NCBI GenBank assembly: GCA_951813565.1
Contig: OX638351.1
Location: 1-64,000, forward strand
DNA length: 64,000 nucleotides
From: an uncultured Poribacteria bacterium
GTDB lineage: Bacteria > Poribacteria > WGA-4E > WGA-3G
Reading direction: 5' to 3'
How positions within the stretch are numbered: position 1 is the first letter of the stretch; each line of letters starts with the position of its first letter. Position numbers and translations under genes: made by a program. This document shows, piece after piece, positions 6,010 through 60,466 of this stretch. The notes beneath the pieces are model-generated. The model had not been told where the DNA came from, searched no databases, and saw nothing but the letters and a program-made list of their open reading frames with translations.

Positions 6010-6161
6010 ACGCAAGTTGCTACTTACAAAATTTTGAACAAAAAGACGATGTTTTTCCTAAAAAACAAGGGTTTTTCGTTGATTCTGGATGTCTTTTGTT
6101 ATAAATCGGGGTTAGAAACCCCTCCTACAAGAGAATTTACGAAATCGGTAGCAACTTGGGT
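6010..6161. mobile_element. 152-bp MITE with internal REP hairpin
   Basis: TIR ACGCAAGTTGCTAC / GTAGCAACTTGGGT (1 mismatch); 7-bp direct repeat TAATATA at 6003-6009 and 6162-6168; internal ATCGGGGTTAGAAACCCCTCCTAC. Confidence 0.8.
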
Positions 6162-10351: not shown

Positions 10352-10461
10352 ATTAGGTAATTTAATAGGTGAGCGTATTGGAAATGTCTAATTGACTGAA
10401 CGATTGTACGTGCATGGTGGAAAAGCGCGCTAACAAAGCGCGCTCACCCAAGAATCCAAAT

Positions 10462-10631
10462 TATAGTGAACTTGAAAAATAAAGGGACATATTTTCTGTA
10501 GGAGCGATCTCCGAATCGCGACGGAACTCACTGATAGTCGGGAATCGGAGTTCCCTCCCGCCAAATGCCAAACGCGCATTTGGCGTTGATTCACATCTCA
10601 AAATGTCCCGTTAATTCTAAAGCTTACTATA
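10462..10631. mobile_element. MITE-like element (TATAGT..ACTATA ends) with REP doublet and inserted hairpin unit
   Basis: ~28-bp imperfect TIR TATAGTGAACTTGAAAAATAAAGGGACA / TGTCCCGTTAATTCTAAAGCTTACTATA; internal GTAGGAGCGATCTCCGAATCGCGAC. Confidence 0.65.
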
Positions 10632-43200: not shown

Positions 43201-46200
43201 TCAGCAGTCGGTTCAATGGTAAACGTAACATCCGTTGGATACAGAGCTGGATCATCAGCGATTAAACTGACAGTGTAGCTACCATCTTCATCCGCAGCAA
43301 TAGAACCTGCTACATCGGCAACATCAGTGATGTTTGTCGGACCGAGTGGCGGCACATCATCAACATTGTCTAATGAGAAGAAAGCTTCCACACCATCACG
43401 ATCGTGATATTCACGACCATCGCGCGGTGGTTCTTCACGTTGATTCATGTTCTGAGGTGTAAGCGAAATTGCACGCACCTCATACTGGTTATACTCGCGT
43501 GTATCTTTGGAAGCATCGCGTTCAGCAGCATCACCACGTTTAATTGTATCATCCAGTTTGATGGTTTCATCCGGTTTGTCGGTGCCTTCCAGTGCCAAAT
43601 GACGGGTATCCGCTCTAACAGACCATTTCTGATAGCCTGCAGGGATTCCAGGAATTCCTACTTCCGATTCCCCACCAGACACAGTGCCTGCCTGCGTGAT
43701 TCCGACAAGACCTCCAACGATACCTGCCAAATCGGATTCATCAACCATAACAGGTGGTTCAACGGTTCCAGTAATACGTTCCCAAGTTGTATCACCTCGA
43801 CGTCTTCTTACCTCAAACCGAACGCCTTCTGTTAGTGGTGAAGTCATACCGTAGGTATACGCTGTGAAAAGGAGGTCCCCTTGCGGTGCGCCGCTGTCAG
43901 GATTCGTTTCCGTTTCCGGATTCAAATTTTCAACAGTGATAGCTATCACACCTGGATCGTGTCTGTAGGAGTTCATAACATTCACTGTGGTTTTGTTTTC
44001 AACAGTGTCTATTATTTCACCACTTTCGGCACGATCATGGGTCTGATCATTCATGTCCGCGTCATAAGCCAGAGCGTGGACTTGGAACGTAAAGACTCCA
44101 CCTTTTGGATTCTCAAATAATTCCTCTGAATTTTCGATATAACTGTCTTCAATATATCTATCATTGTAGACCAATTCGTCAGCATCCATGAGTGTGCCAA
44201 CATCAATCGTTACAGTAAAGACACCGCTACCTTCGGCAGTTTCGGTGATGTCTCCGATAATAGCATCTTCAGGAAGAGTTGTTAGTAACTTCACCGATGC
44301 ATAGGTGTTACGTGCGGCTGTTGGTGTAATGGTGAATGTAACGACAGGAGAGTTGACTTCCGGATCGTATTTATCAACGAGACCACCAACTGTGTAAGTT
44401 CCGTCACCATTGTCTATAAAGACACTGGTATCCTCATACGCGTCAGTCATTGTTGCGACAATGTTCGTCGGGCCGAGCGGACCAACGTCATCAACGTTGT
44501 CTAACGAGAATTTCTCGGTAAACATGTCACCTTCAGCGACTCCATCTGCATCGTCACCATCACTGGTAACTGGGTATGCACGCACCATATAGCGGTTGCC
44601 ATCCAGGTCCACATACGTCATTCCCCCAGCATGCGCAGCATCGAGATTCTCTTTAGTGATGCTGTCTGGCAAACCCAAAGCAACGGTATCTAAATCAAGA
44701 GACCATTGGATGTAGCTGCTGGTGTCATGAATATGTAACATATCGTCTTTATAGACATCTGCTAAAGTGTTACCTTTAAACATAACAGCGGTTATCTTAT
44801 CGCCATCAATGCCATGTTCAGGTTCAGTCATTACTTCAACAGTGCCAACATCTGTCCACGTTTCGCCATCCATACTGACATCAACACGAATAGAGTTAGT
44901 TGCTGGAACTGTCCGACGTGCAGCATATCCGGTAAGCATGATATTGCCTCTCGGTGCGCCACTATCAGGACTCGTATCATCTATGATAGATGCATCATCA
45001 ACCTCAACAACTAAGACCTTCGGATCAACTGGGAAAACGTCTGGATCAAGCGTGATCGGGAACGGATCAGATTCAGACGTGAGTTGGAGACCGTTGGTTG
45101 TTACAGTACGAACCATTACGGCATCGCCTGCCAAATCAGCAGGGGCACTCCAATCAATTGTAAGCGGATCTTCGGTAGCACCTTCACCTTCGACTAAATT
45201 AAGTCCGCCGATATTCTGCCAAGTGCCAGCCGCGTCCATATACTGGACCATGATAGTTCCTGGATGGACTGTGCGTTCATCTTCATCGACTGTAACGGTT
45301 AGCGTTACATCTCTGGCATTCTCATAGATAGTACCGCTTTCATACGGGTCATCTTTACCATTATGGTTGATGTCACCCAAACTTGCCATGGTAACGCTCG
45401 CCCTATCATATTCAGGCGCAACGATTTTAAGATGCGTTGGAGCAACATGAGAACCGACATTAAAGAGTGTATCAATACCCATTGCACGTATCCCGAAATT
45501 ACCTTCTAAGAGCTCTAAATTCTCACCTTGAATAGGCATCATCATGACACGTGTCGTATCATAGGTTATCGGTATCAAATTAAGGTCTTGAACTGCAGCA
45601 CCTATTAAATCAACAAGCAACGCGCTTTGTTCCTCAGTAAGTTTTATTCCAAAGGGTTTCAAAAACGGATTTGCGAACTGTTGAACCAACTGGGCGTTTA
45701 ACAGAGTTAACACATCATCCAATTCTAACGCCGCGGCCGCCTGTAGAGCCGGATCGGACTGTCCTTCCAACTGTTCTCTGACAATCTTCCAGATATCCGA
45801 TGCTACCATAGAATTCTCAACCGTCAAACGCAACCACGTATCTGCCGGATCCGGTTTACCGTTTTCGTCCAATGGAATCATTTGATAAATAAGATACCCT
45901 TTACCCTCACCTACGTCAGAACTTGAACTTGTAATGTTCAAATAAGCAGCACCTGCGTTAGGAGACGTGGCAACCCAAGCACCTGCGGAATTCTGATAAC
46001 CGGTAACGTTTTCTCCGAAGTTATGTTCACCGTCTCCAAACATAATGTCTGCTGCAGGAGCAGTGGTGTCCACCTCAAAGTCAACCATAATCCGATCCAC
46101 AGGTTCGTTATTTGCATTATATACAACGGCTTCTAAGTTAGAAGCACCATCATAAATTGAATCAATATTAGCAAACCAAAATGAACCCGTTTCTATATCA

Positions 46201-47900
46201 ACTTCTGGCACACTGAAGACAGAGGCTAACAACGGATCGAAATTTCCACCGCGATATACTACGCCATTTTCATCAGGTTTGCCTTCAAAGGGACTGGTCA
46301 ACCTGTTGACATTGCGGAAGAACAGATTCTGGAGCTTATTGATTTCTCTTTGTGGAATTGCATTTGCAATCGCTGCACCTTCTATTGGTTCGCCAGCATA
46401 AGCAGCAGCAATAAGTGGCCTAACTTCAGGTAAATTCAGAAGCGTAAACATAGCGGCCTGTAAATCCGCATCAAATAATGCTTCAATGATACCACGTTCT
46501 GCCAATTGAAGGTTGCGCGGATCGGGCATTGACCAGTTTTGGATTTCATATACCTTTATGACGTCTGCAGTAGACGTTCCAGCAGCAGCAATTTGAATAA
46601 GCGCTTCAGGATTTATCACCTCTAACTTCACTGGATTGGTAAGTGTCACTTCAAAATAGTAAAAGACATTACCTTTCGGATAAATTCCGAATTCAAATTC
46701 CCAAACACCATCGCTATTTCGTTCCATAGGATGGGAATCAAAGTCCTCTCCGTCTACCGAATACCGGAGTACAACGCTTGAGAAGATTTCGGTATCTGAA
46801 CCTGGCCATGCGGGTAGGTTCGCCGCTGCAAGCGATTCGTCCAATCGGAAGGTATAAGGAATAGTATCCTGTTGAAATTCAACTGGTGTAATCCTTTTAC
46901 CCTCTACTGTCCGGCCATTAAGATTAAATTTAACATTCCCACCTTCAAGCACAGATGGAACGCGTACATAAACGTTCAGGTTATCACTTGTCAGGTATTT
47001 TTTAACGTCAAAATTGCCGGTGGAAATATCAGCAAAGTCTGAGATAACAAGACTGGGCGTAATAGCATTCCCAAAGTTCTCAAAATCTAACTGCGATCCC
47101 TTTCCTTCAGCAAAAACAGAAAAAGGTTGTTGAGAAGCTAAAATCTGTTTAATCACACCCTTGGGGAGAATCCCCTGCGGGATTTGCGCTAAAATAAAAT
47201 CAACTACAGGCTCCACTAACGGGTCTGCACTTGATGCGGGTAATCCAGCTGCTTTAACAATTTCTCGAACAAAAGCTCTTCCAGAAACTCTGTTAAGTGA
47301 AAGACCACCAAGCCGTGACAGACCATTTAGGTTTGAAGGGGGAAGATCAACTGGCGGTTCAACCGGTGGATCAACTGGCGGTTCAACCGGTGGATCAACT
47401 GGCGGTTCAACCGGTGGATCAACTGGCGGTTCAACCGGTGGATCAACTGGCGGTTCAACCGGTGGATCAACTGGCGTTGCAGCAAGCAGTCCCTGGAGTT
47501 CCTTAACTGCCTCTGTGTCCTGCAGCAAAGTCCGAACTTTTGGGGCCTCTAAAAGTGCTCGGATATCTTGGTCATTTGTGAGTAAACCTATTTGTTCGTC
47601 TGTCACATCCGGCGCAACCTGTCTTATCAGAACAGGAGTTGCCAGTACCAAATCTAACGCAGGACCAAGTCCACCGAGTGCAACAATGGTAGGATTCTGT
47701 AAAGTTGCAGGATCGCTCAGTGCTGTGAGAACTTGATCGACCAGATCCTTAAGATCCTCACGCAAAAGCGTATCGCTGTATTCATCATACACCTGTTGGG
47801 CTAAAGACGCGTCATCTTGCCCAAACACAGTGCCTGGAATTGAACTGTGAAATATACACAATGTAAAAATCAAAAAACAAACAAGTGTTCGTTTTTTCAT
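37296..47900 (-). CDS. Giant (3534 aa) secreted protein with Pro-rich linker, tandem Ig-like domains and FlgD/T9SS type-A-like C-terminal domain
   Basis: Signal peptide; (PPVD/PPVE)n; ~90-100-aa Ig repeats; C-terminal FNFPNPF..WDGKTSGGEDLARGIYYCQI; GAGGAGG RBS. Confidence 0.88.
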   Translation of the reverse strand: MKKRTLVCFLIFTLCIFHSSIPGTVFGQDDASLAQQVYDEYSDTLLREDLKDLVDQVLTALSDPATLQNPTIVALGGLGPALDLVLATPVLIRQVAPDVTDEQIGLLTNDQDIRALLEAPKVRTLLQDTEAVKELQGLLAATPVDPPVEPPVDPPVEPPVDPPVEPPVDPPVEPPVDPPVEPPVDLPPSNLNGLSRLGGLSLNRVSGRAFVREIVKAAGLPASSADPLVEPVVDFILAQIPQGILPKGVIKQILASQQPFSVFAEGKGSQLDFENFGNAITPSLVISDFADISTGNFDVKKYLTSDNLNVYVRVPSVLEGGNVKFNLNGRTVEGKRITPVEFQQDTIPYTFRLDESLAAANLPAWPGSDTEIFSSVVLRYSVDGEDFDSHPMERNSDGVWEFEFGIYPKGNVFYYFEVTLTNPVKLEVINPEALIQIAAAGTSTADVIKVYEIQNWSMPDPRNLQLAERGIIEALFDADLQAAMFTLLNLPEVRPLIAAAYAGEPIEGAAIANAIPQREINKLQNLFFRNVNRLTSPFEGKPDENGVVYRGGNFDPLLASVFSVPEVDIETGSFWFANIDSIYDGASNLEAVVYNANNEPVDRIMVDFEVDTTAPAADIMFGDGEHNFGENVTGYQNSAGAWVATSPNAGAAYLNITSSSSDVGEGKGYLIYQMIPLDENGKPDPADTWLRLTVENSMVASDIWKIVREQLEGQSDPALQAAAALELDDVLTLLNAQLVQQFANPFLKPFGIKLTEEQSALLVDLIGAAVQDLNLIPITYDTTRVMMMPIQGENLELLEGNFGIRAMGIDTLFNVGSHVAPTHLKIVAPEYDRASVTMASLGDINHNGKDDPYESGTIYENARDVTLTVTVDEDERTVHPGTIMVQYMDAAGTWQNIGGLNLVEGEGATEDPLTIDWSAPADLAGDAVMVRTVTTNGLQLTSESDPFPITLDPDVFPVDPKVLVVEVDDASIIDDTSPDSGAPRGNIMLTGYAARRTVPATNSIRVDVSMDGETWTDVGTVEVMTEPEHGIDGDKITAVMFKGNTLADVYKDDMLHIHDTSSYIQWSLDLDTVALGLPDSITKENLDAAHAGGMTYVDLDGNRYMVRAYPVTSDGDDADGVAEGDMFTEKFSLDNVDDVGPLGPTNIVATMTDAYEDTSVFIDNGDGTYTVGGLVDKYDPEVNSPVVTFTITPTAARNTYASVKLLTTLPEDAIIGDITETAEGSGVFTVTIDVGTLMDADELVYNDRYIEDSYIENSEELFENPKGGVFTFQVHALAYDADMNDQTHDRAESGEIIDTVENKTTVNVMNSYRHDPGVIAITVENLNPETETNPDSGAPQGDLLFTAYTYGMTSPLTEGVRFEVRRRRGDTTWERITGTVEPPVMVDESDLAGIVGGLVGITQAGTVSGGESEVGIPGIPAGYQKWSVRADTRHLALEGTDKPDETIKLDDTIKRGDAAERDASKDTREYNQYEVRAISLTPQNMNQREEPPRDGREYHDRDGVEAFFSLDNVDDVPPLGPTNITDVADVAGSIAADEDGSYTVSLIADDPALYPTDVTFTIEPTADPNTYVGGKTVLVQTAPDGTVTETDGSLEEGSITIDVGLLANGPYMYHALVADEFGNVQVQGDMPSPVITVHVLNIRLSDITDLTVTAVDGESPDRHVLQETVGVLQGRFPLKESIAVSFNVNNGSLAVGDLTGVLVDGHEVTFTAGSDAENAFSLMADKLSELADGWYTPLGRITKRNGFLTFPLAMINLDNTGPTITIETPTEGVTVNDLPTLLASFIDLNPERDTDPTKPSGSGVSMADTAEVLLDRLRPEEVVQDAVPIPVDQSMVEQDIDSVVYTRTDKLAGGAYMFTVQVSDRLGNVGTQAVTFAVEGEDPIVIITAPASGQNFDHSPAEITGFFTGGGDVSITKFTINDADMTAEVDENNFTYMPTEALGDGDYTVAVEVTDGSGLTAETSLTFTVELPVPTATITTPAAGQVYDHGKPIIAGDFSGADHTPIAVALSIDNGEAIELVGSDNNQFTYTPIEALSDGPHVVTVVVTDANGRTAETSTDFTVNIPGPAVMIHVPDAGQMYDISRPVIHGEFSGVAAPVSLSLTLNGAAVTAAGDSMFTYTPTDALDDGEYTLVAEVTDANGKMAKATAIFTIRLPVPKVSIQTPTAGQVYEHGMPIITGDFSGADPVAGTLSIDGVAVMEVSGNEFTYTPTDALSDDPHVVTVVVTDANGRMAQASTEFTVDIPGPTVMIHVPDAGQMYDISRPVIHGEFSGVAAPVSLSLTLNGAAVTAAGDNTFTYTPTDALDDGEYTLVAEVTDANGKMAKATAIFTVRLPVPKVSIQTPTAGQVYEHGMPIIAGDFSGAAPIKVALSIDDGEAVELVGSDNNQFVYTPAEALSHGKYTVAVVVTDANGRTAKTSTDFMVDIPGPTVMIHVPDAGQMYDISDPVIQGEYSGVADIDSLILTLDGDVVSADADDGSKFAYTLPEKDVDNDGALEDGKYTLVAKVTDVNGKSADATAIFSIRLPVPKVSIQTPTAGQVYEHGMPIIAGDFSGAAPIKVTLSIDDGEAVELVGSDNNEFTYTPTDALSDGEHMVAVEITDANGRTAKTSTDFMVDIPGPTVMIHVPDAGQMYDISDPVIQGEYSGVADIDSLILTLDGDVVSADADDGSKFAYTLPEKDVDNDGALEDGKYTLVAKVTDVNGKSADATAIFSIRLPVPKVSIQTPTAGQVYEHGMPIIAGDFSGAAPIKVTLSIDEGEAVELVGSDNNEFTYTPTDALSDDPYVVTVVVTDANGRTAKTSTDFMVDIPGPTVMIHVPDAGQMYDISDPVIQGEYSGVADIDSLILTLDGDVVSADADDGSKFAYTLPEKDVDNDGALEDGKYTLVAKVTDVNGKSADATAIFSIRLPVPKVSIQTPTAGQVYEHGMPIIAGDFSGAAPIKVTLSIDEGEAVELVGSDNNEFTYTPTDALSDDPHVVTVVVTDANGRTAKTSTDFMVDIPGPSVAILSPAPGQTYDHGGPVIRGEFSGMTDVEVTTFTVNGEDAEREISEDNQFTYTPDPVLGNGEHAVFVEVTDENNKTAQATVVFNVKLDSTAPVISEVSPSGVVQLNKQNTLDENFAITIAAVITDDESALSSVKYVIDGQLPANSYPVERAESKFEVIESFTPGPHTIKLIVASEGGTREFSWQFTLEVDQSPPIISTITPAGTIHAGLPVISASATDDSGVEEMAIVVMDSNGEEVKGDTTDDDEDRTNAGITRLDFHPEAPLSEGTYSIEVRATDAFGNSSTSGGVFTVDFDTAAPIITTSSPQNGARLMYKHDEEARPTISITFADAETGVNVDSIKLVIEAPKWGGGTLVTPINLTDKQKSATQVVYTPAAPVFTDRLAPGEHVVKLEVSDNAQKQGNVSEESDGAREANTAVYQFSFFVEYTDAPILMKPFNFPNPFKDNTRISFGLNRMSTVRIVIYDATLRPVRVLRDNVVMNAGDYTGNNGIGWDGKTSGGEDLARGIYYCQIEVTDGFEPEYAILKLALTR
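38895..40900 (-). repeat. 573-bp (191-aa, two Ig domains) near-identical tandem repeat, about 3.5 copies
   Basis: Identical shadow ORFs at 39187, 39760, 40333 (573-bp period); more diverged units continue to ~42000. Confidence 0.92.
47345..47475 (-). repeat. 24-bp perfect tandem repeat, about 5.5 copies (PPVDPPVE)
   Basis: GATCAACTGGCGGTTCAACCGGTG repeated. Confidence 0.95.
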
Positions 47901-48523
47901 TAACTTTTCCTCCTCGTTAAGTCTACGCGAAAACGAGACTAAATACTGAAGTTTTTAGAATGGGCAAGCAGAAACACGATAAAACGACAGGAGGTAGGTG
48001 TCTGCCCATCTAAATTAACATCCTACTACCAAGTATTAAATTTTTTCCGTATACGTAACTCAACCCTTAGGATATAGTATCATATATCCGTAATATCAAG
48101 TCAAAAGCAGGCAAAATTGGGCACCGAAGTTCTGTATTGACCAGCGGGGAATCTCTATGGAAGGTTCACATAACAGATTCGAGTGATTACGTAACATAAA
48201 TTTATTGACTTAAAGTTTGATCATAATATAAGAACATCTGTTATTTTAACAAAAATGACAAATTAAGCAAGCATTTTAATCGGCACGCGGCGTTTAATTT
48301 TAGAAATTTGGTAAATTTCCCCGCCTATTTGTTTATCATCGATTAAATTGCAATCGGCATTTAATATAATACCATAATTTTAAAAGTATGTCAAATCAAA
48401 TTGGGAACTTTTTATTTAAAATTTCGGGCATATTTGGACAAAAATTCAATTTCCGATTGACATAATACCAAAAAACGAATAAATTGTCAACAAAAAAGAT
48501 TTCTGTTAAAGGAAAATCTATGT

Positions 48524-49264
48524 ATGTTAACAATTTCTGAAAAGTCTCAACTCGACCAAAACGGTTTTCTGCTTTTGAAAGATGTGGTCTCTGTGTCCAC
48601 AGTATCTCAACTCCGAGAACGCGCTTTGGAACTTGCCATAGCGGAACAAAAGACAGGTAAAAGCCATACCTATTTGCCAAACGGAACCGCACAACGTGTC
48701 TGGAATCTAATTGACAAAGGCGAGATATTTGAAGAGGCTATCCAACACCCTCAAATGCTCAATGCCATGGAATATCTACTCGGTTCAGACTGCACGCTGA
48801 GTTCATTCACAGTAAACATTCTTTACCCAGGCGCACCAGATGCGGGGCTACATATTGACTATCCGTTATCCGCACTTCCGACACCACGTCCCAATTTCCC
48901 TATGGTTGCAAATAGCGTCTGGTTTTTAGATGACTTTACAACTGAAAACGGGGCGACCAGCTGTGTGCCGGGTAGCCATCGAAGACTTGAAGCATTACCA
49001 GAAGGCGGCGTTGAATACGAAGACGAACAGCAAATTTGTGGCATCCAAGGTTCAGTACTAATTGTGAACGGTGCAGCTTGGCACGGTTCCTCCGAAAATA
49101 GAAGTGATACACCAAGAGTTGCGTTACTTGGTTTCTTCTGCCGTTCTATTTTAAAACCTCAACAAGATCATCTGAAGATTGTATCGGATGAAGTCATTGA
49201 ACGTGCAACGCCGACATTAAAACGTTTACTCGGTCTGAATTCATTACCAAGTCTTAACGCGTAA
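48524..49264 (+). CDS. Phytanoyl-CoA dioxygenase (PhyH) family protein
   Basis: LHID, ENGATSCVPGSH, WHGS..N...R. Confidence 0.9.
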   Translation: MLTISEKSQLDQNGFLLLKDVVSVSTVSQLRERALELAIAEQKTGKSHTYLPNGTAQRVWNLIDKGEIFEEAIQHPQMLNAMEYLLGSDCTLSSFTVNILYPGAPDAGLHIDYPLSALPTPRPNFPMVANSVWFLDDFTTENGATSCVPGSHRRLEALPEGGVEYEDEQQICGIQGSVLIVNGAAWHGSSENRSDTPRVALLGFFCRSILKPQQDHLKIVSDEVIERATPTLKRLLGLNSLPSLNA

Positions 49265-49373
49265 GAACGGTTTTCGACTATCGCTTGCACAGTTCCCTAT
49301 TCTGCAGGCGCGCTATTCTACCCATTCTGTAAGCACGCTGTTTCAAAGTATCTGGATAATACCTTCTCAAATC

Positions 49374-50387
49374 TTACGGCGCAATCTTACTTTCTTCTGC
49401 CATAAGTATCCATTCAGGTTCAGATGTTTTTGGTGTAAGTTGATATCGAAGACGGGCCCTGAGTGTGTCACCACTGCTAACATTAAAAACAAACGTTCGC
49501 TTCTCATCAGGTTTAAGACGGTTTCGCCTTTTTTCAGAGATTAAAACCTGCTTTTTCTGATTCTGTGTCCCATTAGGCGCAAGGTGCATTACATCAAGAA
49601 CGATGATACGTAATGTCCCACCCGGTAAGAGGTGGCCCGCTTTGTTCTGAAGGGTCACAGTCGCTTTCTTATCCGCAAATTCAATTTTAAGTGCTGCAGC
49701 ATTTTTTAGCTGTGTGACGCTGCGGCTACCGCGCCACGTATGTTTCCTTCCAGTGATACTTTCGTAACTTGCTGTACTTTGTAACCGACTGACAAGCGGC
49801 ATGTGGCATGTAGCACAACTCTTGTTTTCAGTCGCGAATTTACTCTTGAGAAAACTGGATACCTGATCGTGTTCAGGGACGCTCGGTTGTCCATGACACG
49901 TAGCGCAAAGTTTTGTCGATTCTTTATAGATAGGGTTAGTTACATTTGCATGAAAATTGGTCTCGGCACTTGCCGGAGGACCTTGCATCGCACCATCCGA
50001 ATCGAGGTGGCACACAAGACATGAAACGCCAGAGTCACGTTGCACGTTACGCAATTTTGGCATTTTCCCAATACCTGTAACGAGGATTGGTTTTGGTGCA
50101 TGGCACGGATCACAACTTTTTTCTCTGCCAGCAACCTGTTTTGCTGCTTCCTGATATATTTCGTCTACCCATGCTTGCGCGTGTATCGATTTTTCCCATT
50201 CACGCCAAATTGCTGGGTGGCAACTTTTACACTTGCCATCCTTAAACGCTTGATACATCTCCTTATGTTGATTCTCATCACTCTCTACATCGGATATAAA
50301 GTTTCCGAAGAATACTAAAACACTCAATCCTAATAGAGATAGACACAACCCCAAGATGCATCGTCGAAAATTTAAAGTATAACGCAT
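49374..50387 (-). CDS. Membrane-anchored multiheme cytochrome c (5 CxxCH)
   Basis: CKSCH, CDPCH, CLVCH, CATCH, CATCH; N-terminal hydrophobic helix; WEKSIHA. Confidence 0.88.
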   Translation of the reverse strand: MRYTLNFRRCILGLCLSLLGLSVLVFFGNFISDVESDENQHKEMYQAFKDGKCKSCHPAIWREWEKSIHAQAWVDEIYQEAAKQVAGREKSCDPCHAPKPILVTGIGKMPKLRNVQRDSGVSCLVCHLDSDGAMQGPPASAETNFHANVTNPIYKESTKLCATCHGQPSVPEHDQVSSFLKSKFATENKSCATCHMPLVSRLQSTASYESITGRKHTWRGSRSVTQLKNAAALKIEFADKKATVTLQNKAGHLLPGGTLRIIVLDVMHLAPNGTQNQKKQVLISEKRRNRLKPDEKRTFVFNVSSGDTLRARLRYQLTPKTSEPEWILMAEESKIAP

Positions 50388-50396
50388 CTCTGTTCC

Positions 50397-51827
50397 CTAT
50401 ATTGTATCAAGTAGTTTCAATGCTGCTTGCTCACCGCTGTGTATACAATCTGGAATACCGATGCCGTGGTACGCATTGCCTGCTAAGGCGAGACCGGGCA
50501 AGCCTTTCGCGAGTTCATCAATTTCACGGACAAGTTTTTGGTGTCCAACCAGATATTGTGCCATCGCTTGTGAATGTTCACTAACAAGAAAAAAAAGAGG
50601 TTCCTTTTTGATTCCAAGCAATTTCGATACATCCTTTAATGCAGAGGAAACTAAATCTATTTGTGTCCTATTTTTATTCACATTATTTGAAAAAGTGTTT
50701 CCGCCTATAAATACGCGTAATAGCACGGAGTTCATAGGCGCGCGATTTTCAAATTTAACGCTGCTAAATGAACACCCAACGAGGTTAAGCTGTTCTGTGA
50801 TGGGAACAACAAACCCCATCCCATTGAGCGGGTGAGAGATATCCTCACGACGGAAAGCTAAATTAACTGTTGCAGATGATGTATAAGGAATCGCAGAGAG
50901 TTTTTTGGCAAGCGGCGGTGCAACCTCAGACAAAATATTGCTTGTTCGTGGTGCGGGCAACGCAATGCAGAGTAAGTCTGATTCTAACACTTCGCCATTT
51001 TCAAGGCAAACGCGCCACCCCTTTTTATTTTCTTTTTCTTCAATAGTGCCTACACAGGATAAAAAACGGATACATTCCGCGAGTTTTGCGGCGAGTGTGT
51101 CTACCAACGTCTGCATCCCGTCTGCAAAAGATAAAAATAGACTATAACGTGCCCCGCTTGTCCCACGGCTTGCTTGGGTGGCTTTCCGTTTTTGTGTTAA
51201 GAGTGCTTTGATAATGCTGCCGTGTTCTTGTTCCATTTCCAAGAATCTTGGAAACGTCGCTTTGAGACTTAGATTTTCTGCATCCGAGGTGTAGATGCCG
51301 CCTATCATCGGTTGTGCCATCCGCTCAAACGCCTCGTTTCCGAGTCTGCGTCTAACGAAATCTGCAACCGATTCATCATCTATACCGCTGCGAGGGGAAA
51401 TAAAAAGGTCAAGTGCTATACGGAGTTTACCCGGTAAACTGAAGATAGGGCTTTTTAAAAAAGGCCCGAACGATCCCGGTGCCATCATGTAAAAACCTTC
51501 AGGGACCGGTAGTAGTTTCCCTTTACGGAGGACAAAACTCCGTCTTACCTTTGGGTTAGTGCCTATCAGTTTATCTGTAAGACCGAGCTCTTCACACAAC
51601 GCTTTTGCCCACGGTTTTGTTGTGATGAAGGCATCAGGACCGTGCTCTATGATGAATCCATCTCGGTGTTCCGTTTGAATAACACCGCCTACTCTGTTGC
51701 TTGCTTCAAGCAGACTAATCTCAAGAGGAATCTCCCTATTTTCTGCTTCGCGTTTCAGACGATAAGCAGCAGCTAAACCTGTGATTCCGCCGCCGATAAC
51801 AATTGCACGTTTCTGCTCCTGCGCCAT
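50397..51827 (-). CDS. hemY: HemY-type FAD protoporphyrinogen/coproporphyrinogen oxidase
   Basis: IGGGITGL, EHGPDAF, GGIY, GNAYHGIGIPDCI. Confidence 0.93.
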   Translation of the reverse strand: MAQEQKRAIVIGGGITGLAAAYRLKREAENREIPLEISLLEASNRVGGVIQTEHRDGFIIEHGPDAFITTKPWAKALCEELGLTDKLIGTNPKVRRSFVLRKGKLLPVPEGFYMMAPGSFGPFLKSPIFSLPGKLRIALDLFISPRSGIDDESVADFVRRRLGNEAFERMAQPMIGGIYTSDAENLSLKATFPRFLEMEQEHGSIIKALLTQKRKATQASRGTSGARYSLFLSFADGMQTLVDTLAAKLAECIRFLSCVGTIEEKENKKGWRVCLENGEVLESDLLCIALPAPRTSNILSEVAPPLAKKLSAIPYTSSATVNLAFRREDISHPLNGMGFVVPITEQLNLVGCSFSSVKFENRAPMNSVLLRVFIGGNTFSNNVNKNRTQIDLVSSALKDVSKLLGIKKEPLFFLVSEHSQAMAQYLVGHQKLVREIDELAKGLPGLALAGNAYHGIGIPDCIHSGEQAALKLLDTI

Positions 51828-51874
51828 CAGAGTATTCCTTAGAATGCAAACAGGTTAGTACTTAAAACGTAATC

Positions 51875-52819
51875 CTACTTATCAGACTTTTCACACACAA
51901 AATCTGCTAACATATTAATGAATTTTGGATGGTCTCCAACAGTCCCAGCTCGAATAAAATCAATTCCGCATGCTTCCGCTGTTTCCTTTGCCTCCATATC
52001 TAAGTCATATAGAACCTCTACGTGGTCGCAAAGAAATCCGATGGGGGACGCTACGACAGTATCAACCCCTTCTTCTTTTTTGGCTTTAAGCCAATCGTTG
52101 ATATCGGGCTGTGTCCATGGGATAGGGCTATTTTCGACCTCGCTCTGGTATGCTAAACTGAATTGTCTTTTGCCTATCTTTTGTGCCACAGCTTCAGCTG
52201 TTTTTTCAAATTGTTTTGAGTAAGGTGAGGTATCCGCTGCTTTTTGCGGAATTGCATGTGCCGTAAAAACCAGTTCGGCACGGTCTAACTTGTCACTGCA
52301 TGCGGTTTTGATAATCTCAGCGATCGCGCCAACATATCCGTTATGGGTATACCATTGATCGAGATAGTCAATAGTCGGCTTTTCACCTTCAACTGCTTCA
52401 ATGCCTTTCTTGACGGTCTGTTGGTACCATTCCCAGCTAACTTTGGCTCGGTGGGGTGCCATAATAATACCAAGCATTTTGCGATGTCCCTTTTGTGTCA
52501 TTTCAGCGATGACTTCATTTAAATAAGGAGTCCAATGTCTGAATCCAGCATAAACAGGTAACGGTAAGTCACGCTGTTGCAATGCGTTTTGTAATGCTTT
52601 GGCTTGTTTGAAAGTCAATTCGTTAAACGGCGAAAAACCTCCTAATTTAACGTAATGGGTGGAGATGTCTTGGACGCGTTCTTTTTCAGATTCTGCTTCA
52701 CCGGCAATTCCTTCAACAAAGCAGTATGCCTCACCGGGGCAGTTTTTGGTATCATATTTTTTACAGCATCCAGGGGTTGGACCACCGAATGCTACAAGTA
52801 AAACGCTATCGTATTTCAT
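51875..52819 (-). CDS. hemH: Ferrochelatase with N-terminal four-Cys insert
   Basis: AFGGP, GGFSPFN, FTAHAIP, AYQS, WTQPD, PIGFLCDHVEVLYDLD. Confidence 0.93.
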   Translation of the reverse strand: MKYDSVLLVAFGGPTPGCCKKYDTKNCPGEAYCFVEGIAGEAESEKERVQDISTHYVKLGGFSPFNELTFKQAKALQNALQQRDLPLPVYAGFRHWTPYLNEVIAEMTQKGHRKMLGIIMAPHRAKVSWEWYQQTVKKGIEAVEGEKPTIDYLDQWYTHNGYVGAIAEIIKTACSDKLDRAELVFTAHAIPQKAADTSPYSKQFEKTAEAVAQKIGKRQFSLAYQSEVENSPIPWTQPDINDWLKAKKEEGVDTVVASPIGFLCDHVEVLYDLDMEAKETAEACGIDFIRAGTVGDHPKFINMLADFVCEKSDK

Positions 52820-52827
52820 TTTGCCTC

Positions 52828-54285
52828 CTATGCCATATTGGCAAATTGTGCGGGCATAAAACTCGGATCAACAGCAATTGCTTGTGCAAATGCCTCACGA
52901 GCAAGTGTCTCATCAGAATTTGTGCGATGTGCTAAACCGATGGAAAAGTAGGCTTGCGCAAGTTCTGTGCCCTCAATTCCACAGACTAATGCCTTATAGA
53001 TTGATTCCATACCGGGGGTGGGATCATCACCATTTCGGTAGGCAGAGAAAATGTAGTTGGACCCGCGCAAAAGGTGAGCTGGCGCATAATCGGGGTTCAA
53101 TTCAAGTGCGACATTGAGTGCATTTTTTGCCGCAAAGAAAAAATCACCTTTCTCAAGTACGCTCGACACAGTACGAGATGTTTGTATGAGTAGGTTTGCG
53201 TATTCTGTCCATGCTTCTGGAAGATTGGAGTATTTTTCAGTTGCAACTTTCAAAATGGCGATGGCTAATCCCAAGTCATTTCCTTCTGCGACTTCTTCTG
53301 CAGTTTCGCGATATGCCGCAAAGTCTTGCAGTTCCTGTATCCGTTGGTCAAGCACTTCTGTATCTACTGCCGGAATTGCGGACGGTTTGAAGTGTTGCCA
53401 TCCTGGTTCCGGGTCATCAATCAACCCACGATATACACGCAGAATAGCATAGCGAGGAGTTCCCCAGACTTCAGCAATATCGCGAATCCAGTTCGGCATG
53501 TTGGTTTCCATGTCAGTTAGCAATTCTGCTAAATACATGTCTTGTTCAACCCGTTTTCGGACTTCTGTTAAGAAATAGGATTCAATTTTGAGCAATAGGT
53601 CAATTTCGGCATCGTGTGCTAAAGGTCCGTGTCCGGGCAGCACATGATCTGGTGTGTATGTGCGTAGTTCTTGAATTGTATTTATCCAATCATGGTTTGC
53701 CATAAGTCCTTCATTCATTACGGGTTGTCCAAAAATAGGAAAACTACCTGTCATCACTGTATCACCAGAAACGATGCATCCCTCTGCTGGAATCCTGATG
53801 GCAGTCGCGTCATCTGTTTCTGCTTTTCCTAAATGAACGAGATGCAAAGGTTGATTACCTAAATCAAGTTCGGTTTCGTGGGTGAATGTCTGCTGTGGCA
53901 AAAATGGCGGATCGCCAAGGGTGAAACCACGAGAACGGAGAAAATCTTCTTGGCGCGGTGCTCTGTTCACCATAAAGTCCTTTGTCATCTCGCGTGCGAC
54001 AACAGTTGCACCTTCTTGGCGAAAAATTATGTTCCCGTTTGTATGATCCCAATGATAATGCGTGTTAATTGCATAGAGAATCGGCTTATCTGTGATAGTT
54101 CGAATTGCTTTGAGAAGTCGTCTCCCCATCATCTGATTTACCTGCGTGTCAATTACCGCAACCCCGTTATCTCCTATTATAATAGAAGAGTTGACAATAT
54201 TGCGAAACAGATATACTCGATCTGTCACCTTAACAAGTTGTCCATATTGACGTGGTGCGAAAGGGTTTTCTGAAATGTTTTGCAT
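52828..54285 (-). CDS. MBL-fold metallo-hydrolase with C-terminal TPR repeats
   Basis: THYHWDH, SGD, PGHG; TPR-like helices; ATG overlaps hemE stop (TGATG). Confidence 0.85.
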   Translation of the reverse strand: MQNISENPFAPRQYGQLVKVTDRVYLFRNIVNSSIIIGDNGVAVIDTQVNQMMGRRLLKAIRTITDKPILYAINTHYHWDHTNGNIIFRQEGATVVAREMTKDFMVNRAPRQEDFLRSRGFTLGDPPFLPQQTFTHETELDLGNQPLHLVHLGKAETDDATAIRIPAEGCIVSGDTVMTGSFPIFGQPVMNEGLMANHDWINTIQELRTYTPDHVLPGHGPLAHDAEIDLLLKIESYFLTEVRKRVEQDMYLAELLTDMETNMPNWIRDIAEVWGTPRYAILRVYRGLIDDPEPGWQHFKPSAIPAVDTEVLDQRIQELQDFAAYRETAEEVAEGNDLGLAIAILKVATEKYSNLPEAWTEYANLLIQTSRTVSSVLEKGDFFFAAKNALNVALELNPDYAPAHLLRGSNYIFSAYRNGDDPTPGMESIYKALVCGIEGTELAQAYFSIGLAHRTNSDETLAREAFAQAIAVDPSFMPAQFANMA

Positions 54286-55373
54286 CAACTATCCTGATAT
54301 GTTTTTGCGATATGGACGAAATGTTTGACGTTTTCAAATGGTGTATCTCTATGAAGTCCATGGCTAAGGTTTAAAATATGTCCTGTCTTTCCACCCTGTT
54401 TTATGCAAGTGCTTACTGCTTCTTGTATGTCAGCAAATGTGCCATCGCGAAGAATATCGTTATCAACGTTTCCCTGAAATGCTACGGAACCGCCTATTTC
54501 AGTTTTGGCTTTTTCAAGGTCTACACATTTTCCGATACTCAATACATCCGCTCCACTTTGGTGCATTAAATTAACGAAAGGACACTCTTTTGCAAAAAGG
54601 ATTCCTGGTGCATCTGAATTGAGTTCAGCGAAAATCCGTTGATGATATGGAAGCGCGAAATTTTCATACATCTGCCGCGATAGCACATCCGCTATTGACT
54701 CAAAAAGCTGCACAATCTGAGTACCTTGACTGATCTGGTAATTCAGATAGTTAATCGTCATTTCAGTTAATTTATTTAACAATTGGTGTAGAAGCTCTGG
54801 TGCGTCTTCCATCATTTCAAAGACAGGAGTTGCTTTTTCCGATATGCCAGCACCTCTTTTCATCGGGCTTTCTCCTGCTATCAAAAAAAAGGCGAGTGTT
54901 AATGGGGCACCCGCAAAACCGATAAGCGGCAGTTCTCCATTCAACGTCTCACGCAGTGAACGAATTACTTGTCCAGTGAACTCTAATTGTAGGTGTGGAT
55001 CATTCAGTGGTGTAAGTGCGTCTATCTGTGATTGTGTTCGTATCGGTGGGTTTAAAACTGGACCGGGTAAAAATCGGAAATAAGCACCCATCGGCGCAAG
55101 CGGTGTGAGAATGTCTTTATAAACAATTATAGCATCTACACCGATGCGCTTGGGAAGAAGTGAAATTTTTACTGCCCATTCTACATCTGTGTCCGACATC
55201 GGGGAGGGACAGGTTCGGAAGAGGCGTTCCAACGGAAGGTCAATTTTTTGTCGAATTTCCCGATAAAGGGGGTCCGATCTACCTGCTTGTCGCATCATCC
55301 ATACAGGCACACGTCCCACCGGCAAATATCTTGACGCGCGCAGAAGTAAGTCATTTTTTAATTGTTGTTCCAT
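54285..55373 (-). CDS. hemE: Uroporphyrinogen decarboxylase
   Basis: PVWMMRQAGR, PLIGFAGAP, QGNVD, HILNLSHG. Confidence 0.95.
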   Translation of the reverse strand: MEQQLKNDLLLRASRYLPVGRVPVWMMRQAGRSDPLYREIRQKIDLPLERLFRTCPSPMSDTDVEWAVKISLLPKRIGVDAIIVYKDILTPLAPMGAYFRFLPGPVLNPPIRTQSQIDALTPLNDPHLQLEFTGQVIRSLRETLNGELPLIGFAGAPLTLAFFLIAGESPMKRGAGISEKATPVFEMMEDAPELLHQLLNKLTEMTINYLNYQISQGTQIVQLFESIADVLSRQMYENFALPYHQRIFAELNSDAPGILFAKECPFVNLMHQSGADVLSIGKCVDLEKAKTEIGGSVAFQGNVDNDILRDGTFADIQEAVSTCIKQGGKTGHILNLSHGLHRDTPFENVKHFVHIAKTYQDS

Positions 55374-55398
55374 ATTAATAAGGAATAACTGCTTTACT

Positions 55399-56163
55399 TT
55401 ACCGTGTTTTTAAGCGGGCAAGTTCCTCTCGGAGTCGTGAGGCTTCCGCTTCAGCTTTCTGTCGCGCCTCAGCTTCATGTTGGACACGCGTTTCAGCTTG
55501 TTCGGCACGCGTTTCAGCTCGTTCAGCACGCGTTTCAGCTCGTTCGGCACGCGCTGTCGCTGCGTCAGCAGGAGTCTGCAGCTATTTCCCCGCAACCGGC
55601 TCGTAAACCCCAAGCCCATCATTCAGTAAATGAAAATTCAGGTTTAATACCTCAGAACGCAATCCATCATCAACGTCTGGGGAAACTTCAATATAAGCAT
55701 CCTCAACAAGTCGAAATCCCATCAAGGGTGTTGGTAAATAACGTCTATCAACATCATAGAGGAAGTACTCCGGAATTCCCATTGCAGCATAGTGCGCGAC
55801 TTTCCCCTCTAAATCATTTCGATAGGTGCGTTTGCTTGAAAACTCCATTACGAAATCAGGAGCCTTGCCTTCCTCCCATACCTTGTAGGTACGGCGTTCT
55901 TTCTGTCCTATCCCGAAAGAGACAAGAATATCGGGAAACACAGCAGTTCGAAGAGGGCCCTCAATGTCGTACATCATGATATTGCCGGAGATATAGACTT
56001 CCGGTCTCTGCGCAAAATGCCCCTCAAGGACTTGCCGCAGCCAGATTATCCACTGAATGTGGAGATCGGTATCAGCCATAGGTTTACCATCCGATTCAGG
56101 GTAGAGATCTGCCGTTTCTGTCGGTGCGTAAGGCATTTGGCGCACGTTTGGATAACTTTCCAT
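55399..56163 (-). pseudogene. Uma2 family endonuclease interrupted by in-frame TAG before its coiled-coil tail
   Basis: YPESDGKPM, PD, PDFVMEFSS, EYFLYD; TAG at 55582-55584 then the same frame continues LQTPADAATARAERAETRAE..LARLKTR*. Confidence 0.8.
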
Positions 56164-56257
56164 CGGTGTCCCTCCTAACCATAAGGTTACGTGATTCATC
56201 AAAAGTGTCTAACGTTACATGTAGACAATTTAGTTCTCGATTTTACGAGAGGTTCCA

Positions 56258-56599
56258 TCAAGATAAACCTCTCTTCTGACGCCGTTCCAAAAACTGCCGT
56301 AGTTTCGCAAAACTCTTAACGTTTTTCATAATTCTACCGCTTTCTCGCTCTTCAAGATAGAGTAAAAACCCCATGAGATAGAGGCTCACTAAAAACAGTA
56401 GAAAACCAGTTATGCACTGTGCAATCGCACGATAATTTAGTTTTAAACCGAGGTAAGGGGTGACAACTACGTCGTCGACGGTCGCAGCAGATGGGTTCTG
56501 CTCAGGCCACTCAACCGATACAAGGTCACCCCACCCCGTTATTCCGAGCGATAAAAAAACGATTGATAAGGCAAAAACGATAAAAAATGGGATACCCAT
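56258..56599 (-). CDS. Hypothetical two-TM membrane protein
   Basis: 113 aa, two hydrophobic segments, co-oriented between ADH and Uma2. Confidence 0.6.
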   Translation of the reverse strand: MGIPFFIVFALSIVFLSLGITGWGDLVSVEWPEQNPSAATVDDVVVTPYLGLKLNYRAIAQCITGFLLFLVSLYLMGFLLYLEERESGRIMKNVKSFAKLRQFLERRQKRGLS

Positions 56600-56615
56600 G
56601 TTAGATACCGAAATC

Positions 56616-57686
56616 TTAAGAAGAAACTTTTATCAATCCTTTGGTGCAGCGGTCTTCTCGATTACAAACCTTTGTGATTCCTTCAACAAGTGATTCAAGT
56701 GGAAATTCGTGACTAATGATTTTGTCCATGTTTACATCGCCACTGGAAATGAGTTGAACTGCCTCTTCCCATGTATCGGGTGCTAACCATGAGAACCTTA
56801 TGGTCTTATCCATAAGGATCGTGTCAAGAATTGGAACCTGCATTACATCTTTATCACCAGGAAGACCAAAAATAACGACAGTTGCGTGTCTCCCAGTAAC
56901 TTCAAGCGCAGTATGGATTGCATCAAGCGAGCTCGTGGCAGTAATAGCACGGTCAGCCAATTCACCGTTATTGAGTTCCTGAATTGTTGCGCCAAGGTCT
57001 TCAACGTAGTGTGGAGAGTTGGTATCGCTGACATTCACAACTAAGTCTGCACCGAGTTCCTTACCGCATTCCAAACGATAGTCGCGAGTTCCAACCAACA
57101 ACACGTTCTTCAAGCCACGACTTTTCAAAACTTGTACCATCATCAAACCGATGGGACCGGGACCGAAGACAACAGCAGTTTGTCCTTCTTCAGCATTAAG
57201 ATTGTTAACGGCGTACAATCCGCATGCGAGAGGTTCAGTGAGTGCTCCCTGTTCATACGTGACGTTTTCGGGTAGTTTTACCGTCCAACGGTAGTCAGAA
57301 ACAGCGTATTCCGCGAAGCCACCATCAACACCCACACCTAAGATACGTTTTTCGGGACATAGGTTGGACAGTCCTTTTTTGCTCCAAAAAGAATTCGGGT
57401 TGGATTGCACTGGATTCACAACAACTCTGTCGCCGACTTTAAATCCGCCTGTCTTTCCTGCTTCACTTCCTACTTCAACGACTTCGCCAGTAAATTCGTG
57501 TCCGAGAATAAGCGGTCCTTTGCCATCGTCTGTTTCAAGGGAACTATTACCGAAATAGTATGCTACATCCGAACCACAAATGCCCACTGAACGAACTTGA
57601 ACTAACAGGTCTGCGTCACCAGCTGTAGGCACTGGTCGATCTTCAAGACTCATTGATTCAGGTTCATAGAAAATTTGAGATTTCAT
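56616..57686 (-). CDS. Zinc-binding (MDR) alcohol/polyol dehydrogenase
   Basis: GICGSD, GHEFTG, EPLAC, GPGPIG; AGGAGG RBS. Confidence 0.92.
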   Translation of the reverse strand: MKSQIFYEPESMSLEDRPVPTAGDADLLVQVRSVGICGSDVAYYFGNSSLETDDGKGPLILGHEFTGEVVEVGSEAGKTGGFKVGDRVVVNPVQSNPNSFWSKKGLSNLCPEKRILGVGVDGGFAEYAVSDYRWTVKLPENVTYEQGALTEPLACGLYAVNNLNAEEGQTAVVFGPGPIGLMMVQVLKSRGLKNVLLVGTRDYRLECGKELGADLVVNVSDTNSPHYVEDLGATIQELNNGELADRAITATSSLDAIHTALEVTGRHATVVIFGLPGDKDVMQVPILDTILMDKTIRFSWLAPDTWEEAVQLISSGDVNMDKIISHEFPLESLVEGITKVCNREDRCTKGLIKVSS

Positions 57687-57785
57687 TATATACCTCCTTA
57701 ACTTTTATGAATACCGTTAGTTTAACGTGAGTTTGATAATTAGACCTAAATGTAGATGTCCGTTGGGTAGAGCGAAGCGAAACCT

Positions 57786-58122
57786 ATAGGCGTCAATTTA
57801 GTGCCTGATTTTCTTGTGGGAGGGCTTTCTAAGCCCGATATTGTGAGGCTCAAACCGTTATATCGGGGTTGAAAACCCGACAAATGCCAAAAAGCGCATT
57901 TGGCGTTGATTTGGCAGCATGCCAAACGCGCATGCTGCGTTGATTTGGACAAATGCCAAAAAGCGCATTTGGCGTTGATTTGGCAGCATGCCAAACGCGC
58001 ATGCTGCGTTGATTTGGACAAATGCCAAAAAGCGCATTTGGCGTTGATTTGGCAGCATGCCAAACGCGCATGCTGCGTTGATTCGCTCCCACAATAGGAT
58101 ATATTCTAAAATTGACGCCTAT
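57786..58122. mobile_element. Inner MITE (ATAGGCGTCAATTT TIR) inserted in a REP
   Basis: 14-bp perfect TIR; flanked by duplicated GTAGAGCGAAGCGAAACC (57767-57784, 58125-58142). Confidence 0.75.
57879..58083. repeat. Three perfect 69-bp tandem units, each made of two related hairpin+GTTGATT half-units
   Basis: Units start at 57879, 57948, 58017. Confidence 0.92.
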
Positions 58123-58349
58123 GAGTAGAGCGAAGCGAAACCCAACAATTCAACCGTCTTGGAAGTAATTTAAAGTTGAGTTTCACTCATTTTCCTGTTA
58201 TTTCGGCATCAAATGGAGAAAAAATCTCTCTTTTATGTCCGATTTTTTGTTTATTCCGTTCTACCCAACGGACAGTGGTTATTGAATTTTATTATCAAAC
58301 TCACGTTAGTTTAGCATAGCTACCTTAAATTTACAATAAATTAATAGAC

Positions 58350-58658
58350 ATTAGACATTATAACGTTTTAATTGTGAGTTATTGGTCTACGGAAAAATCT
58401 TATGTTTGTCCGTTGGGCAGATGAGGCATCGCGCGCAACTTTCTGAATCGCGGATTTATCGGATGACGCAGATGGCACGGATTATTGGATACTGGTAACA
58501 ACAAGTCGTTTTCATAATGTCCGGTCAATAACAGAAGGCGTGCATGCGTCCGTTGAATGTGCGGATACAAAGTTCTTAAAATCCGCGTCATCCGATAAAT
58601 CTGCGATAATCCGCGATTCTGACAACACAACGCAGATTAAATCATTATAATGTCTAAT
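58350..58658. mobile_element. MITE-like element (ATTAGACATTATAA.G.TTTAAT TIR) with internal 9-bp-period inverted repeats
   Basis: 21/23 TIR match; inner TCTGAATCGCGGATT..AATCCGCGATTCTGAC at 58441-58624. Confidence 0.6.
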
Positions 58659-60432: not shown

Positions 60433-60466
60433 TTTTACAATCCTTTCTTAATTTCAATAGTTATGC

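Follow-up and report, generated by a model that had tools for sequence, protein, structure and literature searches.

The window analysed here comprises the first 64 kb (64,000 nucleotides) of the single-contig genome of an uncultured Poribacteria bacterium (GCA_951813565.1, contig OX638351.1; one contig of 5.43 Mb, 43% G+C; labelled G000). At two loci of this window, repetitive extragenic palindromic (REP) sequences are interrupted by a small hairpin unit of 33-36 nt with the tail TTGATT, which is present as a single copy at 10559-10591 and as an array of six at 57878-58083. In the reading that we favour with moderate confidence, these units are members of a genus-wide Poribacteria family of tiny non-coding repeats that is likely self-mobile, probably as single-stranded DNA (ssDNA) and possibly via nicks set by RAYTs (REP-associated tyrosine transposases of the HUH type).

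The single unit on the plus strand at 10559-10591 reads CGCCAAATGC-CAAACGC-GCATTTGGCG-TTGATT, then CACA; it is built from CG, an 8-bp stem, the loop CAAACGC, the second stem arm and CG, with the tail TTGATT at 10586-10591. Folded as ssDNA, it gave a 10-bp helix of -11.2 kcal/mol (z = -3.6), and 1 of 200 shuffled sequences was equally stable. The unit starts after the final CC of the right REP arm GTCGGGAATCGGAGTTCCCTCC (10537-10558, plus strand, inverse REP (iREP) strand), and the remainder of the split REP foot, CACA, follows at 10592-10595 on the same strand. The arm is thus divided into GTCGGGAATCGGAGTTCCCTCC / (T)ACA, and unit-free paralogues run through this point as ..TTCCCTCC TACGTCTCAAAATG.. 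with TACA or TACG, the T after the cut being replaced by C in the filled form. The interruption of a REP foot by a hairpin plus TTGATT, noticed in the preliminary description, is borne out by the letters, the fold and the paralogues alike (..CCCTCC^[T]ACA). The left REP arm TGTAGGAGCGATCTCCGAATCGCGAC (10497-10522, plus strand) is of the GTAG type and is the inverted partner of 10537-10558/10593-10595.

Both arms are part of a 174-nt host repeat (10458-10631, plus strand) that looks like a miniature inverted-repeat transposable element (MITE). The genome contains nine unit-bearing copies of it with 90-100% identity and further copies without the unit. In G040, G012, G002, G006, G046 and G050, the same flanking genes are approximately 42-66 nt apart, as judged from match coordinates, versus approximately 415 nt in G000, and the orthologous spacers of relatives are devoid of the MITE. 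The relatives' spacers contain a terminator-like hairpin that is retained in G000 at 10419-10450 (GGAAAAGCGCGC..GCGCGC, then TTTTCC on the minus strand). G000 and six relatives (L003, L004, L006-L008 and the more diverged L005) keep this hairpin at the position where G006 (L002) bears a reverse-oriented unit, AATCAACGCCGAATGC..GCATTCGGCG, in its place. Because of the unit-bearing copies of the 174-nt MITE and the short orthologous spacers without it, the copy at 10559 most likely arrived as a passenger in its MITE. The initial view of this copy as a solo insertion was therefore abandoned: it belongs to a longer fixed repeat, whereas the family as a whole does not.

The array at 57878-58083 (plus strand) corresponds to 3.0 copies of a 69-bp period with 100% match and resolves into six alternating units, K-Q-K-Q-K-Q (K, CAAATGC stem; Q, CAGCATGC stem), as had been described in essence before. 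With a period of 34/35 nt, the units directly follow one another head to tail without spacers, and a clustered regularly interspaced short palindromic repeats (CRISPR) array was rejected on the grounds of this abutment and the lack of unique spacers. Five units end in TTGATTTGG, as observed for C^G insertions, and the final one in TTGATTCGC, as observed for the host site CCC^CT. The array interrupts the 3' arm of the REP hairpin TATCGGGGTTGAAAACC (57861-57877, plus strand), with ..GGGGTTGAAAACC (then CC) on the left and C(G)CTCCCACA on the right. The right boundary, CGCTCCCACA at 58084-58093 (plus strand), comprises CG as two additional nucleotides and then the host end CTCCCACA, the complement of TGTGGGAG at 57815-57822. 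The REP end was indeed interrupted, but the cut point AAACC^GCTCC given for it initially was 1-2 nt off, the clean reading being AAAACCC^CTCCCACA with the insert G..TTGATTC(A/G). An intact (empty) REP of the same class, ATCGGGGTTAGAAACCCCTCCTACAAGAG, which had been noted from 6105 onwards, is present and spans 6105-6133 on the plus strand. The array's host is a composite repeat of approximate extent 57764-58147, with outer arms GGGTAGAGCGAAGCGAAACC..GGCGTCAATTT and AAATTGACGCC..GTAGAGCGAAGCGAAACCC, and it likewise looks like a MITE.

Within the host family of the array, the empty form AAAACCCCTCCCACA was present in 143 copies and 79 copies were filled. Near-identical copies of the array's MITE subfamily bear 1, 2, 3 or 6 units; among the paralogues are single Q or K units and cases in which a further unit has been added to the left ('CCCGA CAAATGCC' when empty versus Q + K when filled). 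Since the three 69-bp periods are 100% identical, we infer that the array additionally grew by tandem duplication. The proposed amplification into arrays thus holds in that arrays do form, but the array at 57878 does not look like the result of six transpositions. Public short-read contigs of four runs covering 44001-64000 all break at 57690-58366 and are uninformative on array alleles.

Unit architecture and insertion sites

Comparison of junctions and copies defined the canonical unit as CG, an 8-bp covarying stem, a loop C..GC, the complementary stem, CG and TTGATT, with a length of 33-36 nt. With the criteria of a 9-10-bp stem and a 7-9-nt loop starting with C and ending with GC, 405 canonical units in 325 arrays were identified in the whole genome; 274 arrays are single units, 37 double and 8 triple, and there are two of four, two of five, one of six (that of the window) and one of nine units. 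The motifs GCGTTGATT and GTTGATTTGG occur 742 and 562 times, versus 44 and 12 expected, respectively. A hairpin adjoins TTGATT at 591 of 6935 sites, versus 64/2772, 58/3470 and 63/3213 for control hexamers. The stem set of the 10559 unit, CGCCAAATGC/GCATTTGGCG, accounted for 69 copies; CGCAGCATGC/GCATGCTGCG was found 51 times (plus 56 copies scored as a 9-bp stem), CACCGAATGC/GCATTCGGTG 22 times, CGCTGAATGC/GCATTCAGCG 11 times and CGCCAAATAC/GTATTTGGCG 7 times, and further stem sets exist.

Across the units, the loop and the tail CGTTGATT are constant while the stems covary, an earlier observation that was substantiated with 89 distinct units, of which the window contributed three and other genomes 86. 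In this sample, 92.2% of the cells were paired, and two-sided changes occurred in 72 cells versus 22 in shuffled sets, with none of 500 shuffles reaching 72; the four inner stem pairs are set by the search pattern and uninformative in this respect. Sliding the partner columns abolished the signal. The ratio of G.T to C.A mismatches in the stems was 39:12 over all copies and 20:10 over 130 distinct sequences, which is tilted towards folding of the strand that carries the tail. Next to the intact REP, the window contains at 6044-6085 another small hairpin, AAAAAC-AAGG-GTTTTT, with the same CGTTGATT tail, whose 26-mer is found six times in the genome; it may represent a related module with a different stem.

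Open reading frames (ORFs) of at least 150 aa cover 80% of the genome, and 315 of the 325 arrays lie outside them. A flank 12-mer with five or more occurrences was found at 291/325 arrays versus 233/1000 random sites, and both flanks were unique at 11/325 arrays versus 441/1000 random sites. The left neighbour of the arrays was CC in 238 and GG in 20 cases, and the right neighbour TGG in 128, CAC in 90, CGC in 29 and CCC in 26 (n = 325). Units from other Poribacteria genomes (n = 132) showed CCC|G on the left in 97 cases and TGG (77), CAC (21) or CGC (11) on the right. Among other places, units occupy either side of the GGGGTT..AACCCC REP as well as the foot, CTCC|TACA, of several REPs of the GTAG type; further host sites include GAGGCG|CAATGAATTGCGC, CAGTCCCG|TAGGGAC, GACCCCG|CCCTACAA and GTTTACACC|TATGGG, and units are also nested in the loops of other units. 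In total, at least 12 unrelated repeat contexts with clean filled/empty junctions share the left junction CC|CG, and differing stem subfamilies were found at one and the same site of a single host.

For the analysis of the junctions, 190 flank contexts were considered, 93 of which had a unit-free paralogue; nine were dropped in which the left flank is the tail of another unit, leaving 84. Clean insertions were observed in 49 contexts (15 unambiguous, 34 with an ambiguity of 1-2 nt), and 13 swap a single nucleotide, mostly the T of CC-T-ACA; the remaining 22 differ by more and are uninformative. No target duplication was detected in the 84 filled/empty contexts. Four main junction classes were distinguished: in empty AAAACCC^CTCCCACA, the insert is G..CGTTGATTC(A/G) with 34-35 nt per unit; in (C/G)(C/G)C^G, it is G..CGTTGATTTG with 34-35 nt; in CC^TATG, it is CG..CGTTGATT with 33 nt; and in CC-T-ACA, the T is swapped for CG..CGTTGATTC with 34 nt. 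The right junction contains 0-2 additional nucleotides (C, T, CA, CG or TG), and the first target nucleotide is often lost. The orientation within GTAG-type REPs is strict, with 22 cases of CTCC|unit|CAC versus 0 reversed, these copies not being independent. With respect to flanking tandem genes, no orientation bias was found (115 on the same strand, 94 on the opposite one). A double-tailed unit, TGTG-AATCAA-CG hairpin CG-TTGATT-CACA, is located at approximately 1460155-1460181 of G000; here, the unit hairpin, tailed on either side, seems to have taken the place of the entire REP stem.

Gain, loss and distribution among genomes

The tail GCGTTGATTTGG was present in 40/40 genomes of the genus, 1 to 357 times each, whereas the reversed control gave 0-2 per strand; the assemblies of one to four contigs span the range from 1 (G048) to 357 (G000). 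Matches to the unit pattern were obtained for 16 of the 18 other congeneric genomes and for none of the 12 that represent other families in this order. A pattern scan with one genome per species retrieved at least 114 stretches, and the 80 listed matches comprised 79 from 'Candidatus Poribacteria' and one from an 'uncultured bacterium'.

A tree of 222 copies of the array's host repeat (143 empty, 79 filled) was calculated from the flanks alone, with the unit columns excluded. It required 25 changes of state, a rough and upper-leaning figure as the FastTree topology from approximately 240 columns is noisy; shuffled labels (n = 200) required 65 on average and 58 at minimum. Most copies were inherited with the host repeat, yet many gains or losses are still required. 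For an orthologous comparison, 800 kb of G006, the closest sampled relative (approximately 85-92% identity), were used, and both flanks were located for 20 of the 325 arrays. The whole repeat cluster was missing in 12 cases, the unit alone in one; one unit was present in both genomes, and six cases were not alignable. The unit at 2975078 is absent from G006 between conserved flanks. G008 shares the unit that precedes a paralogous gene family at 1281008; the upstream DNA of the other genomes was unalignable and gave no clean empty site.

The clearest exact empty allele lies in a protein gene. An in-frame unit at 4444600-4444632 of G000, outside the window (locus L177:601-633), is located near the start of a glycosylase gene whose product has OGG_N (E = 1.3e-23) and HhH-GPD domains, and it adds 11 codons immediately ahead of the domain. 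It was present in 11 of 14 aligned genomes, and exactly these 33 nt are absent in G045, G003 and G049 (..AACGTCA^CAGATTTTAACC..). One of the orthologues (L200) shows a compensatory stem change. The survey of insertion sites and empty alleles proposed in the preliminary description yielded paralogous as well as orthologous empty sites, no target duplication and a marked preference for repeats. As regards the family, these data largely support reading the unit as a mobile module, with its discreteness, empty sites and repeat bias established, while the involvement of a HUH enzyme is plausible but unproven.

The 300-fold differences in unit number between sister species make the units usable as strain markers, and units and host MITEs break short-read assemblies of sponge symbionts. 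Further variation was seen elsewhere in the window. A stretch of 1755 bp at 61239-62993, beside a ribosomal protein L1-like gene, contains three small ORFs (103, 121 and 148 aa, minus strand) of unassigned function and is swapped for 64 other nucleotides in a contig of public run X9, which marks it as a strain-variable cassette. Tandem repeats are located at 55485-55570 (21 bp, 3.3 copies) and 47345-47476 (24 bp, 5.5 copies, perfect); contigs of runs X7 and X9 are devoid of one 21-nt copy at 55505, so that its copy number is strain-variable.

Candidate mover and competing explanations

Ten matches to Y1_Tnp were found in the genome. The resident IS200/IS605-type insertion sequence (IS) has 1756 bp with tnpA and tnpB (228254-230009 of G000) and approximately 25 further copies, many of them of approximately 1365 bp with tnpB only; its left end starts with TTAGCAC, and its end hairpins are CCCCTGCCTTTAGGTAGGGG / CCCCTACCTTTAGGTAGTGGG. 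Three weaker matches are RAYT-like genes at 242008-242493, 3549545-3550027 (with a TAG stop) and 5070803-5071252. Inverted REPs flank all three, of the GTAG type at the first two and of the GGCGAGGTTTCC type at the third. REPs of the GTAG type are hosts of the units, and the REP upstream of the gene at 242008 is itself interrupted by a unit. Downstream of this gene, at 242500-242830 (L022), approximately eight GTAG-type REPs (GTCGCGAGCTGGAGCTCGCTCCTACAGGAAGA and a variant) are arranged in tandem, resembling bacterial interspersed mosaic elements (BIMEs). A composite autonomous element bounded by units was rejected, as none of the 88 neighbouring unit pairs encloses a repeated coding element.

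According to the available part of the study on TnpA-REP from Escherichia coli, this enzyme acts on single strands only, requires GTAG plus the hairpin and cleaves CC^T; the iREP-II site is given as (G/T)(G/T/A)CC^TAC(A/C/G), inside CTAC, and the legend to its Figure 7 proposes nick-primed copying for BIME amplification (PMC3333891). The unit position in GTAG-type REPs, including 10558^10559 of the window (..GCTCC^TACA), coincides with this CC^TAC cleavage spot as far as it is described there. A strong RAYT match was obtained in 20 of the 40 genomes of the genus; these have a median of 37.5 tails versus 16 in the others (Mann-Whitney p = 0.002, with kin not being independent), and p = 0.03 was calculated for assemblies of up to 30 contigs. 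None of the seven genomes with up to 10 tails had a strong RAYT match, versus seven of the eight with at least 100. HUH mobilisation of the unit is plausible, because its insertion point in GTAG-type REPs is the RAYT cleavage spot and RAYT genomes are richer in units, but unproven.

A self-mobile family could spread by three routes: by insertion after CC^Y in a single orientation relative to the REP; by passive copying with a host MITE, as would be the case for the 10559 copy; and by growth of arrays through insertion at the CC^CG step, which would be recreated on the left of every resident unit, together with tandem duplication. After RAYT cleavage of the REP strand at CC^Y, the 3' end might be joined to a unit copy or extended along it; nick-primed copying would suit the fuzzy right junction. 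Considerably more tentative, and in our view doubtful as yet, is the full version of this scheme, in which the unit would be a minimal HUH substrate, a 33-nt 'parasite of a parasite' that uses REP-transposase nicks at CC^Y, copies itself strand-specifically, recreates CC^CG, builds arrays, replaces terminator hairpins and enters genes in frame.

A number of findings weigh against self-mobility or its RAYT-dependent form. None of the ten Y1_Tnp matches is flanked by units, and with the 88 unit pairs likewise negative, the search for a TnpA/RAYT gene between unit hairpins that had been suggested came out empty. The IS200/IS605 TnpA was rejected as mover, as the end hairpins and left flank of the resident IS are unrelated to the unit. 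The association of units with RAYTs is confounded in that RAYTs also make the REPs where units live; G051 has 206 tails and no strong RAYT match, and the RAYT copy of G040 contains stop codons. Most unit targets are CC^CG rather than CC^T, and the unit ends have neither GTAG nor a CT dinucleotide. In our reading of the accessible enzyme data, plain cut-and-paste at C^T cannot yield the observed right junctions, and no single cut-and-paste rule fitted all classes in the 84 contexts. The units showed no chromosomal strand bias (195 plus versus 210 minus), the GC skew being too weak to place the origin. The clustering of filled and empty states on the rough host tree argues that most copies spread with their hosts, and in the G006 comparison, a unit alone was missing just once, a whole cluster 12 times.

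The strongest competitor, which we consider unlikely, is enzyme-free copy-choice: a 3' end stalled at a CC-ending hairpin foot would anneal to the CC-CG edge of a distant unit, copy hairpin and tail and return via microhomology of 1-2 nt, the spread being a by-product of hairpin-induced template switching. It would account for the constant left junction CC(CG) and for right junctions readable as donor flank (TGG, CAC, CGC) sharing 1-2 nt with the target, such as TACA to CACA, TGTA to CGTA, TATG to TATG and CGN to TGGN; also in line with it are the absence of an associated transposase and the occasional replacement, not interruption, of resident hairpins, as at the G006 terminator site and in the double-tailed unit. 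The constancy of loop and tail beside covarying stems, however, suggests recognition by a protein beyond mere foldability, the REP orientation is strict (22 to 0), and a family confined to a single genus with a 300-fold range of copy numbers is hard to square with a general replication error.

Self-mobility also has to be weighed against the absence of any autonomous movement, which appears distinctly improbable. The unit would then have got into a small number of ancestral MITEs or REPs, a single time in each case, and the patchiness would stem from MITE amplification, gene conversion and loss by slippage. The repeated 12-mers flanking 291 of the arrays, the nine unit-bearing copies of the 10559 MITE, the host-tree clustering (25 changes versus approximately 65 after shuffling) and the 12/20 loci at which the entire repeat cluster differs from G006 are all expected in that case. 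What it fails to explain are the identical CC|CG left junctions in at least 12 unrelated contexts, several stem subfamilies at one host site, units within the loops of other units, the 11 arrays with both flanks unique, and the 33-nt in-frame insertion in a single-copy gene with its exact empty allele in 3/14 genomes. A selected functional motif, i.e. a terminator-like or protein-binding hairpin kept and multiplied for the benefit of neighbouring genes, would fit the covarying stems, the location of 315/325 arrays outside long ORFs, the T-rich tail TTGATTT and the G006 unit in the place of the relatives' GC hairpin plus TTTTCC downstream of a gene, but it is highly improbable given the lack of orientation bias versus flanking tandem genes (115 versus 94), arrays of up to nine units, nesting inside other repeats, 1 to 357 copies among sister species and the lack of an Rfam family match (no match at gathering score in an Rfam 15 search of the whole window, with two chance-level mir-15 rows, E = 0.18, at the array).

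Self-mobility of the unit, if it applies, would mean that 33 nt with a hairpin, a loop and a six-base tail suffice for a mobile element, so that the size floor would be well below MITEs and REPINs (paired REP doublets) and the unit would be among the smallest mobile DNAs known; if the 'parasite of a parasite' scheme were true, no smaller element would have been shown to transpose. The mechanism is testable because the insertion point matches a RAYT cleavage site that was mapped biochemically, as far as the accessible text describes it. A unit can lengthen a protein by 11 codons or occupy the position of a terminator.

Comparison with known small repeats

A literature search that covered few subscription journals found no published description of the unit in Poribacteria. 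The pentanucleotide TTGAT of ISDra2 is contained in the unit tail. With IS200/IS605 elements (IS608, ISDra2), as presented in the available part of the TnpA-REP study, the unit shares a hairpin plus a short 3' cleavage motif, a fixed left flank and the lack of target duplication (PMC3333891). It differs from them by having one hairpin instead of two different ends and by the absence of tnpA/tnpB between units. MITEs are usually longer than 50 bp and have terminal inverted repeats and target-site duplications, whereas the unit has 33-36 nt, one hairpin and an asymmetric tail, and shows no target duplication in the 49/84 clean junctions. Rickettsia palindromic elements are small palindromic repeats of approximately 100-150 bp that can sit in frame in protein genes, a position also taken by the unit in the OGG-like gene; mitochondrial GC clusters are likewise small, palindromic and able to sit in frame in genes, but organellar and with other targets.

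REPs, BIMEs and REPINs with their RAYTs, as far as the accessible sections describe them, resemble the unit as short, intergenic hairpins with a conserved flanking motif that form tandem arrays without target duplication, and as single-stranded, strand-specific substrates, which for the unit is a candidate role (PMC3333891, PMC3116915). The unit, of about the length of a single REP, differs in its consensus, which lacks GTAG/CTAC and is flanked by CC and TTGATT (its host repeats do have GTAG), in not forming inverted pairs around a RAYT gene and in residing inside REPs.

Elhai et al. 2008 (Genome Res 18:1484) reportedly defined SDR1-8 of Nostocaceae as repeats of 21-27 nt with hairpins, nesting and tandem copies. 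Compared by description, the unit with its 33-36 nt would exceed the length reported for these small dispersed repeats (SDRs) of cyanobacteria. It occurs in Poribacteria, whereas SDRs occur in heterocyst-forming cyanobacteria (Nostocaceae); it combines a covarying stem with the constant 3' tail CGTTGATT, and it targets CC^Y at REP feet and not HIP1. According to the parts of the SDR literature available to us (PMC3116915, PMC5861425, PMC4390886), SDRs are small dispersed repeats, and the insertion point of SDR5 in HIP1 lies behind the third base, GCG^ATCGC. On that basis, both are very small, non-coding repeats of a single lineage that insert precisely into other repeats, and SDR5 enters after CG, as do many units. 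The cyanobacterial SDRs are the closest known kind, by a likeness in behaviour and not by homology.

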